Shown: positions 5,953-16,117 of the stretch, piece after piece | Numbering within the stretch: position 1 is the stretch's first letter | Layout of the letters: every line of letters starts with the position of its first letter | DNA from: a virus | Taxonomy: Duplodnaviria; Caudoviricetes | Direction: 5' to 3' (one strand) | Length of the DNA stretch: 35,264 bases | Virus record (IMG/VR): IMGVR_UViG_3300028025_000966 | Coordinates: 1-35,264 of that record | Program-made: the position numbers and the translations under genes | Notes under the pieces: generated by a model | The model's input: the letters and a program-made list of their open reading frames with translations, nothing else | Databases searched by the model: none | What the model was told of the DNA's origin: nothing

Positions 5953-7113
5953 ATGGCACTAACACAACAACAATTTATGCAACTAATGGGTGGCAAACGT
6001 GAGCCAGTAACGGCATCTCTTGCATCTGTGTTAGATTTAATTAAAAAACCATTAGATTATTATGCTGTAGATAAGCGAGTGCCATTAGTAGGCGGTCAAT
6101 CAGCAGCAGACTTAATTGGTCTTAGTGGTACACAATCACTAGTGCAAGACTTTAGCCAAGGCAAGCCAATGATGCGTGACGGTTTGCCTGATGAGCGTTT
6201 TATTGATGCTGCCGGCATGATACCTATGATTAAACCTGCTGCCGTTGGTGCAGGACAGGCTGCTAAATATTTAGGTAAAGAGGCATTAAGACAAGGCTAC
6301 GAAGGTACTGGTTTGCTTGGTAAGATTGCACCAGACATTAAAATGCCAATTACAGCATGGCATGGCAGTCCTTACAGATTTGATAAGTTTGACCCTACTA
6401 AGATTGGTAGTGGAGAAGGCGCACAAGCATACGGTCATGGATTATATTTTGCTGAAAATCCTAAAGTTGCACAATCTTATGCAAATATAGAACCTGCTGG
6501 TGAAATAGCTTCTCCAAGACGAACAATTTTTGGAAAAGAAGTAGAACCAAGAACACCTGAATATAAAGCAGCGCAATTAGTTGATGAATTAGGATTAAAT
6601 AAAGCTAAAAAATATGTTTCAGATTGGGTAAAAAATTCAAGACCAGATGAAATAGATTTTTCTAGTAACATAAACAATATATTGTCTTCAGTAAATAAAA
6701 AATCAGAAGTTAAAAATTTAGGTACAAGTAATTTATATAAAGTTGATATTCCAGATACGCATATAGAAAATATGTTAAATTGGGATAAACCAATAAGTCA
6801 GCAAACTCCTAAAGTAATTGCTGCAATAAATAAAACAAAGAAATCTCTTACAAGTGATGATTTGGCAGAATTAGGTGGCGATGCAGGATTGCTATATGGT
6901 AAAGACATAACACCTGCACAATTTTTAAATACATGGGAAATTATTAGAGGTCAGCCTAATGTTGGCGAATCACTATTAAATCAACATGGAGTTAAAGGTG
7001 TAAAATATTTTGATAATCCTAGCAGAGATGCAATGAAAGGCACTCAAAACTTTGTAGTGTTTGATTCAGACATAGTTAAGATATTAGAGCGCAATAAACA
7101 ACCAATTAAATAA
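5953..7113 (+). CDS. Protein with C-terminal ADP-ribosyltransferase-fold (ART-PolyVal-like) domain
   Basis: AWHGSPYRFDKFD..KIGSGEGAQAYGHGLYFAENPKVAQSY ... LYKVDIP ... GVKGVKY ... NFVVFD; N-terminal third resembles virion-protein low-complexity sequence. Confidence 0.7.
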   Translation: MALTQQQFMQLMGGKREPVTASLASVLDLIKKPLDYYAVDKRVPLVGGQSAADLIGLSGTQSLVQDFSQGKPMMRDGLPDERFIDAAGMIPMIKPAAVGAGQAAKYLGKEALRQGYEGTGLLGKIAPDIKMPITAWHGSPYRFDKFDPTKIGSGEGAQAYGHGLYFAENPKVAQSYANIEPAGEIASPRRTIFGKEVEPRTPEYKAAQLVDELGLNKAKKYVSDWVKNSRPDEIDFSSNINNILSSVNKKSEVKNLGTSNLYKVDIPDTHIENMLNWDKPISQQTPKVIAAINKTKKSLTSDDLAELGGDAGLLYGKDITPAQFLNTWEIIRGQPNVGESLLNQHGVKGVKYFDNPSRDAMKGTQNFVVFDSDIVKILERNKQPIK

Positions 7114-9147: not shown

Positions 9148-9763
9148 TTTTATTCCTTAATGCTTGTTCAATCAAATAGGCATAATCATTCCATAAATTA
9201 GCCAAAGGCATTTCTATTGCTTTATCATAAAGTATTTCTCTTTCATCATCCGTTAATCCTTGCCATTGATGAGGGTGGGTGGAATATGTTGTAAGCCTAT
9301 CAATAACATCAATTCCTGTGTGTCCGTCAAACTCAAACATTGCTTTATCTGTTTCTTTGATTTTGAATAAATCCCAATCTTTTGCTTCATAATGATTGCT
9401 AATTTGACCACTTGGTAACACTGCAACAACAATAAACCAACCTCCACCAAAGCAAAGTTCACCATTGTGATGCCGCCATGACTTATGTACAGAGCATTTA
9501 TTATTTGCAGACAATTCATTAAACAATGCAGCGTTATATGCCTTTCGGAACTCATAAAGTTCATTGAACGTGTGATATCCATCTGACGTGTTACCATCAA
9601 CTACAAATTCTTTCGCTGGTAAGTCCTCACGGACTTGTTCCGTGTCTAGTGCTTCTTTGCAAGCGTCAAGAACATCAATGTAATCGCTTGATGAAATACC
9701 ATCATAATCTAAAAATCTTTCCATTAATTCAATGGACATATTTAATGCTTCATCTTTAGTCAT
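9140..9763 (-). CDS. Modular TKDEAL family protein (copy 2) with inserted SDGYHTFNELY...FDGH domain
   Basis: Same termini as 8716-9147; central ~110 aa domain of a widespread phage family of unknown function. Confidence 0.75.
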   Translation of the reverse strand: MTKDEALNMSIELMERFLDYDGISSSDYIDVLDACKEALDTEQVREDLPAKEFVVDGNTSDGYHTFNELYEFRKAYNAALFNELSANNKCSVHKSWRHHNGELCFGGGWFIVVAVLPSGQISNHYEAKDWDLFKIKETDKAMFEFDGHTGIDVIDRLTTYSTHPHQWQGLTDDEREILYDKAIEMPLANLWNDYAYLIEQALRNKND

Positions 9764-12578: not shown

Positions 12579-12695
12579 TTAAGCCACCAACAAAGCGTAT
12601 GTTACCGCCAACATTATCACAGACAAAACAAAACATAATCCTTCTACTACTGGTAGCCAGTTAAACTTTGGCTTGTAATTTTTGTAATCAGTCAT
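12579..12695 (-). CDS. Small TM protein (38 aa)
   Basis: MTDYKNYKPKFNWLPVVEGLCFVLSVIMLAVTYALLVA; AGGAG RBS. Confidence 0.6.
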   Translation of the reverse strand: MTDYKNYKPKFNWLPVVEGLCFVLSVIMLAVTYALLVA

Positions 12696-12816
12696 TGTTA
12701 TTCTCCTGTTCACGTTTAGCTAATTTAACTTCTAACTCTTCAAACTCTTTACGCATTGCTTGTATTTCTTTTATTATCTGCTCAAGTTTTGGGTCTTTTA
12801 GATCGTTAGTGTGCAT
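12688..12816 (-). CDS. Small coiled-coil protein (42 aa)
   Basis: MHTNDLKDPKLEQIIKEIQAMRKEFEELEVKLAKREQENNND; GGAGG RBS. Confidence 0.6.
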   Translation of the reverse strand: MHTNDLKDPKLEQIIKEIQAMRKEFEELEVKLAKREQENNND

Positions 12817-13033
12817 TACGAGCCTCCCTTGTTTCACGGTCGCATTTAGCTTTGAATAAGCAAACAGATGCTTCTATCTCAGCAACTCGTGTGTATACCT
12901 TCTCAACCATTTGGTATTGGTTAAGTAAGGCGCAAGCTAGTTTGTAGGAATTGTAGGTAGAGTTAACAACTTTACCGTTTTCTAAGATGTCCCATTTTTG
13001 TTTTGGGAATTTTGTAGATTTGATTGTGTACAT
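12806..13033 (-). CDS. Early hypothetical protein
   Basis: ATG 13033 with GGAG RBS directly downstream of the leftward promoter/leader repeat. Confidence 0.65.
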   Translation of the reverse strand: MYTIKSTKFPKQKWDILENGKVVNSTYNSYKLACALLNQYQMVEKVYTRVAEIEASVCLFKAKCDRETREARNAH

Positions 13034-13084
13034 TTTTATCTCCACCGTTTCTATTAGTTAATCGCTTTGTTGCTGCGATGTGTA

Positions 13085-13626: not shown

Positions 13627-13998
13627 ATGAAAATAATTATGAAAATATCAGAACACCAAGAACAAGTCATGCTAATCACATGGTTCAGAATGCAATACAA
13701 GCAATACAAGTATCACTTATGGGCGATTCCTAATGGTGGATCACGGCACATAGTCACGGCAGTCAATTTAAAGGCAGAGGGAGTGCTTGCTGGAGTCAGC
13801 GATCTATTTTTAATGATTCCTAATAGTAAGTACCACGGAATGTTTATTGAGATGAAGGCAAAGGCTGGCAAAGTATCAGATAGCCAGAAAGAGTTTATGG
13901 CAGCAGCTAGTTCAATGAACTACTTGCCGGTTGTCTGCTATGGTTTTGATGAAGCTAAAGAGGCTATCACAAAATACTTGCATGAAATTAAAAGTTAG
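13627..13998 (+). CDS. VRR-NUC domain nuclease (Holliday junction resolvase-like)
   Basis: SEHQEQ, AIPNGG.R, LKAEGVLAGVSDL, FIEMK, SDSQKEF; alternative start 13639. Confidence 0.92.
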   Translation: MKIIMKISEHQEQVMLITWFRMQYKQYKYHLWAIPNGGSRHIVTAVNLKAEGVLAGVSDLFLMIPNSKYHGMFIEMKAKAGKVSDSQKEFMAAASSMNYLPVVCYGFDEAKEAITKYLHEIKS

Positions 13999-14006
13999 TT
14001 TATAGT
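13978..14006 (+). promoter_or_regulatory. Rightward promoter of replication operon
   Basis: TTGCAT-17-TATAGT. Confidence 0.7.
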
Positions 14007-14013
14007 TATTACA

Positions 14014-14119
14014 TCACTTGACGGTGAACAACTAGTAAGCCTTAGTCAACACTCTGCTGGTACTAGCCAGTCCGTCAACATCCCTAAAAAAGATGAGAGT
14101 GTTGTCTAGGGCTTTTTTT
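14014..14119 (+). ncRNA. C4/CI-like structured RNA or attenuator in the leader of the replication initiator
   Basis: 19-nt stalk 14037-14055/14096-14114 (18 pairs) plus U-run, enclosing two small hairpins and an 8-nt bulge; bulge and loop are complementary to upstream 14018-14024 and 14032-14037. Confidence 0.7.
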
Positions 14120-14132
14120 ATGGAGAAAGCAA

Positions 14133-14849
14133 ATGCATTATTACAAAAGAAATCTTGGCGATTACGCTAAGAAGGCTGGAAGGCTAACAATGCTTCAGCA
14201 CGGAGCGTACACGCTCTTGATTGATTCGTGCTATGACCGTGAAGTATTCCCTACACTTGAACTTGCTATTGAATGGACTTGGGCATCTACAGAGGCTGAG
14301 ATTGATGCGGTTAAGTTTGTTCTTAGTAGGTTCTTTACTATCACTAAAGATGGTGAATATGTACAGGATAGAATATTGCAAGAGCTTTTAGAATATCACG
14401 CTAAAGCTGATAAAAACAAAGAGATTGCTATAGAAAGAGAAGCTAAACGTAAAGAAAATAGCACGAAGCGTACACGTATCGTAGACGAACCGTCACCTAA
14501 CCATAAACCAATAACCACTAACCATAAACCAGTAACTAAATACATACCACCAATTCCTACGGAATTATTTACTGAGTATCAAGCTATCAGAAAAAGTAAA
14601 CGAGCAGCACCACTTACAGAACGTATGTTTAATGCAATATGTAAGCAAGCAGCATTAGCTGGTATTACACCTGATAAGGCAATTACTATTTGCTGTGAAA
14701 GAGGTTGGACAGGATTTGAGGCATCTTGGTTAAAACAGGATAAGCAAGCATCAACATTAAATGCAGCTCTTTCTGTATTTAAGCCACAGTACATTGCAGA
14801 GCAAACAGCTCACATAAAATTAGTTGGAGATAATCATGCAGAATTTTAA
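14133..14849 (+). CDS. Replication initiator, YdaU/DUF1376 family (lambda O-like)
   Basis: MHYYKRNLGDY..A.RLTMLQHGAYTLLIDSCYDRE; C-terminal RKSKRAAPLT..CCERGWTGFEASWL. Confidence 0.9.
   Translation: MHYYKRNLGDYAKKAGRLTMLQHGAYTLLIDSCYDREVFPTLELAIEWTWASTEAEIDAVKFVLSRFFTITKDGEYVQDRILQELLEYHAKADKNKEIAIEREAKRKENSTKRTRIVDEPSPNHKPITTNHKPVTKYIPPIPTELFTEYQAIRKSKRAAPLTERMFNAICKQAALAGITPDKAITICCERGWTGFEASWLKQDKQASTLNAALSVFKPQYIAEQTAHIKLVGDNHAEF
14497..14537. repeat. 7-bp tandem repeats within the initiator gene, candidate origin element
   Basis: TAACCAT-AAACCAA-TAACCAC-TAACCAT-AAACCAG; CTAACCATAAACCA at 14497 and 14518. Confidence 0.6.
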
Positions 14850-15949: not shown

Positions 15950-16117
15950 ATGACACACACAGAGTTAAAAGAACTACGCAGTAAAACTGGTTTATCACAG
16001 AAAGAGTTTGGCACTAAATTGTTTAAGACTAGGGACAGCATTGCTAAGTACGAATCCGGCAAGTTTACGATTCCTGCTTACATGGATATTTTAGTAAAGG
16101 CTGTGTTTAATGACTAA
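15950..16117 (+). CDS. XRE/Cro-like helix-turn-helix regulator (55 aa, not in ORF track)
   Basis: MTHTELKELRSKTGLSQKEFGTKLFKTRDSIAKYESGKFTIPAYMDILVKAVFND; AAGGT RBS. Confidence 0.88.
   Translation: MTHTELKELRSKTGLSQKEFGTKLFKTRDSIAKYESGKFTIPAYMDILVKAVFND

Follow-up and report, generated by a model that had tools for sequence, protein, structure and literature searches.

A covarying leader RNA before a phage replication initiator, likely a rearranged C4/CI-type element

The window analysed here, meaning the whole stretch of 35,264 nucleotides, is the genome of a tailed phage (35 kb), its ends overlapping by 126 nt and its completeness rated at 98%. Within it, a leader region lies between a VRR-NUC nuclease gene and a gene for a DUF1376 replication-initiator-type protein (Table 1), and the latter gene (ATG 14133) is likely the first of an operon under the putative control of this leader. 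Downstream in the replication operon there is a 55-aa HTH (Cro-like) gene (15950-16117), which is the sole transcription-regulator match in a PHROG scan of the 58 window ORFs. On the other side, a strong leftward promoter (13608-13580, 11/12) points away from the VRR-NUC/initiator operon, from which no repressor gene separates it, and two terminator-like hairpins (12655 and 12956) are located in a gene-poor stretch (12655-13045). Elsewhere in the window, a 386-aa gene after the lysis genes (5953-7113) has an ART-PolyVal (ADP-ribosyltransferase) match just below the threshold (30.7 vs 31.2 bits).

Table 1. Genes and RNA features at the leader locus, in window coordinates
Feature	Position	Strand	Evidence or remark
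VRR-NUC nuclease gene	13627..13998	+	Pfam PF08774; 58% identity to P19250A gene in equivalent position
Putative sigma-70 promoter TTGCAT-17-TATAGT	13978..14006	+	-10 hexamer kept in relatives; P19250A stretch near-identical
Target-1 hairpin showing TTGACGG (14018-24)	14014..14027	+	Stem pairs covary; P1 a1 is TTGACAG
Target 2, CTAGTA, unpaired, adjoining stalk base	14032..14037	+	Covariation with loop; equivalent of P1 b1
Stalk 5' strand (predicted terminator stem)	14037..14055	+	16/17 counted pairs changed on both sides; 96.9% of cells paired
Major hairpin, invariant G-U closing pair	14056..14071	+	Loop TACTAG (14061-66) complementary to target 2
7-nt junction bulge CCGTCAA	14072..14078	+	Full complement of target 1
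Minor hairpin, 3' of bulge, variable loop	14079..14095	+	Alignment of relatives
Stalk 3' strand and seven-U run (14113-19)	14096..14119	+	Intrinsic-terminator-like end
Shine-Dalgarno-like GGAG	14122..14125	+	Outside stalk; exposed
DUF1376 replication-initiator-type protein, 238 aa	14133..14849	+	Pfam PF07120; PHROG 'primosomal protein' families

The putative leader promoter consists of TTGCAT (13978-83), a 17-nt spacer and TATAGT (14001-06), with its -35 box inside the 3' end of the VRR-NUC gene and a predicted transcription start at about 14012-14013. An earlier note on this DNA had proposed this promoter; its sequence is present, and a -10 hexamer with at least 5/6 matches is found 16-22 nt 5' of target 1 in 101 of 147 relatives (a count without shuffle control), but a consensus promoter scan did not call TTGCAT-17-TATAGT, whose -35 box has only 3/6 consensus matches. 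Target 1 itself was considered as a -35 box and rejected, as it has no fitting -10 box and most members read TTGGCG.

The leader RNA is about 105 nt long and holds the targets, the antisense segments and the predicted terminator in one piece. Its stalk (14037-55/14096-114) is interrupted by one U-U mismatch (14046/14105), and the 78-nt stalk domain has a predicted folding energy of -34.8 kcal/mol (z -6.1) that none of 200 shuffles equalled, while both target sites appeared in order in none of 200,000 shuffles of the 30-nt leader. All elements described in the earlier note are in place, and the complementarities are exact and far from chance. One of these elements needs a small correction: of the single strand given there as 8 nt, 7 nt are free and match target 1, but the first U lies where it can pair with G14056, this G and U being invariant in 75/75 aligned members. 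TTGACGG occurs once more in the window, at 9330 on the minus strand, but no target 2 adjoins it there and it was dismissed as chance.

Relatives were collected by pattern scans of viral, genome and metagenome contigs that fixed only the major-hairpin stem and the constant bulge letters, with at least 120 stretches from each source (estimated totals 550, 180 and 1,700), and from DUF1376 loci, of which a protein scan gave 80 out of 198. A descriptor that ignores the targets, run over all loci, gave 152 distinct candidates, 149 of them with a stalk of at least 16 pairs; two further pattern scans preselect target 1 and were left out of the target-blind count, which comprises 125 of these candidates. 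In 124 of the 125, the sequence upstream contains the exact 7-nt complement of the bulge, compared with a mean of 65 and a maximum of 77 for shuffled partners. The loop can form 5 or more Watson-Crick pairs with the site next to the stalk in 116, where shuffles gave a mean of 19 and a maximum of 29. The two complementarities, whose covariation the earlier note had put forward as a check, indeed change in step across relatives. Even where the bulge departs from the majority type, its complement is found upstream in 36 of 37 cases, and the sole miss (L465) lacks a U-run and sits in a bacterial MAG. This member and one with atypical spacing were removed from the 149 to give the 147-member set used throughout, in which a U-run (at least 6 T in 8 nt) ends the stalk in 143 members and a CCA in none.

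Of the 81 non-redundant members, 75 entered an alignment; the other six, which have long inserts or atypical ends, were omitted. When both long-range pairings are counted in, paired cells make up 97.8% of the full structure (slid controls: 34-47%), and 31 of the 39 pairs show changes on both sides. The pairing of target 1 with the bulge is Watson-Crick at all 7 positions in 75/75 members, in seven variants. On a weakly resolved tree of the 75 members built from stem and minor-hairpin columns, target 1, the bulge and the two jointly required 20, 20 and 20 changes, and target 2, the loop and the two jointly 55, 57 and 59. Well-supported independent pairs numbered only 2-4 per sign test; nearly all were concordant, but no test reached significance (p 0.125-0.5). 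The stem columns contain 173 G-U cells and 7 A-C cells, an excess that indicates an RNA on the + strand. The window leader is a real RNA element, and strongly supported as such.

The recognition letters diversify faster than the scaffold. Among close relatives the per-site change of target 2 is about three times that of the stalk (0.051 vs 0.016 over 39 pairs and 0.100 vs 0.037 over 60 pairs, the pairs not being independent), a stalk identical to that of the window is found with four different target-2 variants, and 56 target combinations were counted among the 147 members. As for distribution, a blastn search with the window RNA returned no phage record and one 22-nt plasmid match, judged to be chance, and searches with two other variants of the RNA gave matches only in two uncultured spring phages. 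R1, our own model of the RNA, had no match in Venkman or around the DUF1376 gene of five cultured phages, and no cultured carrier was found in these searches.

The genes that follow the RNA are diverse. They include many unrelated initiator types, as well as HNH or small genes that are inserted ahead of an initiator. Others belong to polymerase or ParB-like/helicase modules, and in one case the gene encodes an Ant antirepressor. By our assignment of classes from the downstream gene annotations, an initiator-type gene is first in 92/147 members and within the first two genes in 112/147, with 43 loci too short for two genes. Since the initiator types are unrelated, the RNA goes with the function and not with the DUF1376 family; of the proposal that it directly controls the DUF1376 initiator, the position at the head of replication operons is supported, but the relationship is not specific to DUF1376. 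Among the 80 DUF1376 loci, the window-type leader is directly before the gene in 21 and before an inserted gene in 4, and a leader resembling the Rfam motif int-alpA occurs in 52 (41 directly, 11 about 320 nt upstream); 3 have neither, one of them truncated. The cultured freshwater Methylophilaceae phage P19250A (KX815270; L691:600-728) has the VRR-NUC gene (58%) and DUF1376 as well as a promoter stretch that is nearly identical, with a short leader that lacks the RNA, which makes the RNA an optional cassette, dispensable in at least one related phage. The resemblance to P19250A hints at a possible Methylophilaceae host for the window phage. The DUF1376 gene of P19250A is annotated from a TTG start.

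The known RNAs that the leader most calls to mind are the C4 RNA of phages P1 and P7 and the CI RNA of P4. The comparison with P1 used the alignment rows of Weinberg 2010 (PMC2864571, supplement file 5) and an annotated P1 record. Both RNAs contain the core GCUGG-loop-CCAG-UC-nnn-CAAC (UC-UGU-CAAC in P1), both present a target TTG-nnn-G in a small hairpin (TTGACAG in P1 a1, TTGACGG in the window), and in both the second target (b1) begins 14 nt after the start of the first (a1). A stalk of about 17 bp, two hairpins, a 7-nt bulge and a position in the very leader that is controlled are further likenesses to P1/P7 C4, and the stalk of about 80 nt with two hairpins and a bulge recalls P4 CI (RF01695). 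According to passages of PMC4825925 and PMC3632133, P4 CI silences replication genes by premature termination, pairing with targets in the leader.

The differences are equally clear. In P1 and P4 the minor hairpin lies 5' of the major hairpin and the bulge follows, whereas the order in the window is major hairpin, bulge, minor hairpin. The C4 stalk ends in CCA and its targets lie about 65 nt upstream; the window-type stalk ends in a U-run and its targets adjoin it. P1/P7 C4 also has downstream targets (a2/b2), which the window-type RNA lacks: within 250 nt downstream in 147 members, a copy of target 1 was found in 6 and a complement of the loop in 3. The leader genes are icd and ant in P1, and the window type has neither, its first gene usually being a replication initiator. 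P4 CI is processed, has targets on both sides (seqA/seqC, the seqA region corresponding to isrK, RF01394) and comes after a separate isrK hairpin that has a U-run as well, whereas the window type forms one piece of about 105 nt; moreover, P4 is a satellite phage, and the carriers of the window type are packaging-competent phages, mostly without integrase. C4/CI RNAs are described as processed by RNase P in a passage of PMC5499578, and since no CCA end was found in the 147 members, such processing is unsupported for the window type.

The Rfam models of this family did not match the window-type RNA. The C4 model (RF01695) had no match at E<=10 in the window region or 20 member loci and none at E<=0.01 in 24 carrier genomes, and c4-a1b1 and isrK (RF03163, RF01394) had no match in the window region or the 20 loci, where only an a1-like hairpin is present and not two in tandem. 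The same models found C4 (66-75 bits), c4-a1b1 and isrK in the positive controls P1, P4 and the chromosomal locus L547, which places the window RNA outside the C4 and c4-a1b1 families against which the earlier note had advised checking it. Conversely, R1 did not find P1 or P4 and recovered only a 36-nt core of L547 (9.8 bits). The features of C4 that the window RNA does possess are a stalk with a major hairpin, a minor hairpin and a single-stranded bulge, and a bulge and loop complementary to two upstream sites with covariation. The description of the leader as a C4/CI-like antisense RNA is therefore borne out in recognition core, target geometry, covariation and + strand RNA, but not in Rfam membership, arm order, CCA end or downstream targets. 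Judged from sequence, the window RNA probably shares the core with C4/CI by descent, and it is likely a rearranged C4/CI-type element that would act like these RNAs yet fails their family membership. The locus L547 (156-351), from a bacterial genome, carries a canonical C4 together with isrK and a1b1, and its bulge and target letters equal the majority type of the window family; cross-talk between this canonical C4 and the window-type architecture is conceivable.

Predicted folding suggests how such a leader could work as a switch. When the nascent RNA ends at the bulge, the pairing of target 1 with the bulge belongs to the predicted lowest-energy fold in 143/147 members, as opposed to 0/147 for the full-length RNA, and target 2 pairs with the loop in 105/147 predicted nascent folds. 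For the window, the target-paired nascent fold is predicted at -17.6 kcal/mol vs -9.0 for the local hairpins; the helices are short (-8.8 and -4.4 kcal/mol), which counts against the switch. Under equilibrium folding the target-paired form stays lowest for a median of 21 nt past the bulge, and the stalk ends 36 nt past it; because the stalk becomes the lowest-energy fold well before its end, read-through would need a kinetic trap, and this is the chief weak point of the switch model. As target 2 lies at the base of the stalk and the loop at its top, about 23 bp away, the geometry implies that cis pairing and the stalk exclude each other. In the released RNA the loop is predicted to be free and the bulge at least half free.

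The reading that we consider fairly probable is that the leader is a C4/CI-type attenuator with feedback, in which the antisense RNA itself is the predicted terminator. Transcription would start near 14013, and in the nascent RNA target 2 would capture the loop and target 1 the bulge on its emergence, so that the 5' strand of the stalk would be trapped. If the trap outlasts the passage of the polymerase over the U-run, the initiator operon would be read; if the stalk forms instead, transcription would stop at 14113-19 and an RNA of about 105 nt, perhaps trimmed to about 80 nt, would be released with its loop and bulge free. On new transcripts, this RNA could then occupy targets 1 and 2 while the loop and bulge of those transcripts are still to be made; the stalk would form and termination would follow. 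The outcome would be a negative feedback on the supply of initiator that counts the genomes of the same specificity in a cell. Early expression would limit itself and co-infecting kin would be suppressed, with no need for a repressor protein. Both antitermination by target pairing and action in trans are steps that we infer. Among RNA-library contigs, 11 runs contain at most 0.18 of the words, and in the four examined the contigs give neither ends nor strand.

An alternative is that the switch acts only in cis, as a kinetic attenuator in which pairings inside one transcript set a fixed read-through or sense polymerase speed or a protein, and the released RNA is inert. We regard this as unlikely, although pairing in cis accounts for all the covariation equally well, signals for processing (CCA or another) are absent, and most carriers lack lysogeny genes and so have no evident need for immunity. 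The faster diversification of the recognition letters is something that a cis-only switch does not need; furthermore, target 1 is displayed in a hairpin loop with a covarying stem, like P1 a1, and the core is that of a known trans-acting RNA. The fast change of target 2, the four variants on one stalk and the 56 combinations favour action in trans, as indirect evidence from sequence comparison.

Another alternative retains the molecular mechanism of the feedback attenuator and differs in the biological role: like P4 CI, the RNA-RNA switch would serve to keep up a carrier state without integration, or a prophage of plasmid type, that is truly immune to superinfection. The use of CI by P4 to silence its replication genes, described in PMC4825925, would be a precedent, and the 56 specificity types resemble immunity groups. 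Gene content was surveyed in 31 carriers with long contigs, or 32 with the window added. A tyrosine integrase was found in 2/31 carriers (1/23 near-complete genomes), and ParB-like genes follow the RNA in a few members; these points would suit a carrier state. Against it, ParA (0/32), resolvase (0/32) and an S24 (CI-type) peptidase (0/31) were not found in these carriers, only 2 of 118 scored GTDB pattern matches were real, both on short MAG contigs (9.7 and 1.3 kb), and the RNA was found in 0/150 family relatives of one of these MAG carriers. We consider such a role improbable. In the window genome itself no integrase, S24 peptidase, ParA or resolvase was found, and no integrase was found in G018, a carrier labelled 'provirus' in IMG/VR, which was not drawn on as evidence. 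The statement that this phage has no CI repressor or integrase hence holds for the window genome and for most of its relatives, and by the same token prophage-type immunity is weakened rather than supported; the gene content of the carriers lends no support to prophage immunity or plasmid copy control, the earlier note having suggested copy control or superinfection immunity. Feedback limiting of the initiator is likelier than either.

It is very improbable that the element works as a switch of translation, as an operator or cruciform in the DNA, or simply as an intrinsic terminator for the gene before it: the long stem and U-run, together with a co-oriented gene ending just upstream in 108/147 members, would suit a terminator but leave two covarying long-range pairings unexplained, the excess of G-U over A-C cells speaks against a DNA structure, and the ribosome-binding site outside the stalk and the lack of a conserved leader reading frame (frames 48/42/38) speak against translational control. 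A leader ORF from an NTG in the minor hairpin was also tried and is not conserved among members.

If the feedback attenuator model holds, C4/CI RNA control reaches from a few temperate enterobacterial phages to a large freshwater group that looks lytic by gene content, and this suggests a replication-limiting decision missed by searches for lysogeny markers. In P4, the route from CI pairing to termination is called unclear in a passage of PMC3632133. The leader would also be a minimal test system, since about 105 nt accommodate the targets, the antisense segments and the terminator, and 56 natural target combinations are at hand for orthogonality tests. More tentatively, we speculate that abundant freshwater phages without integrase, CI and partition genes might use the RNA as a protein-free kin counter, whereby the leader RNA of the same type silences the replication operon, leading to a multiplicity-dependent pause or carrier state and to the exclusion of same-type co-infectors; the 56 target combinations would then be immunity groups and the int-alpA-like RNAs a parallel solution. 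Such a scheme is possible, but we would not expect it to hold in full. One member (L152:1462-1570, - strand) lacks the U-run and lies directly before a Bro-N/Ant antirepressor gene, nearer to the c4-ant arrangement of P1, and may act differently.

Leaders with the stalk type of the window are found before DUF1376 genes and also before PF14297 genes, and we take PF14297 to be the same family as DUF4373. A catalogued candidate may be related: DNAVirus_187 of Fremin et al. 2023 (PMC10690425) is listed there as a 49-nt candidate. Of its 122 sequences, 105 are of freshwater and 16 of marine origin, and the gene immediately after it is DUF1376 in 54 cases and DUF4373 in 36. It has under half the length of the window RNA, 3 covarying bases and no terminator flag, and the table rows consulted give neither targets nor a mechanism. 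Compared by this table description only, habitat and downstream genes match those of the window's sub-lineage, and DNAVirus_187 may be a 49-nt fragment of the window RNA. The literature search found no description of the window RNA; the supplement texts of Weinberg 2010/2017, the sequences of Fremin 2023 and PMC176756 were outside the comparison and could bear on novelty. The RNA c4-2, which a passage of PMC5737381 calls a likely distant homologue of C4, had no match in all-Rfam searches of the window and member loci, where no family reached its cut-off. The motif freshwater-2 (RF02980) was rejected, with a best score of 21.6 bits in 32 genomes and 18.2 on 14056-14135 (cut-off 49.9), a weak score due to the tail of U-run, Shine-Dalgarno sequence and ATG.

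The closest parallel in position is int-alpA (RF02996). It has the same arm order (hairpin, bulge, hairpin) and occupies the same slot before DUF1376 in the 52 loci mentioned above, but it shows no sequence match to the window type and the complement of its loop lies downstream. The RF02996 model had no match on the window or on window-type leaders, its matches falling on the other leader type (L005-L077, 41 loci, e.g. L060:2905-2979, and the 11 further upstream), mostly just under the cut-off. In 32 distinct leaders of this kind, the second loop matches, as its complement, a downstream site that precedes the start codon, and loop and site vary together (mean run 5.9 vs a shuffle mean of 4.5 and maximum of 5.0), which suggests that this orphan motif could be a pairing switch. 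Taken together, 77 of the 80 DUF1376 loci carry either the window-type RNA (25) or the int-alpA-like RNA (52), a count by which initiators in this phage group would as a rule be gated by RNA, and which suggests what int-alpA may do. At one locus (L300:256-571), both leader types occur in tandem, with a small gene between them, before an initiator-like start.
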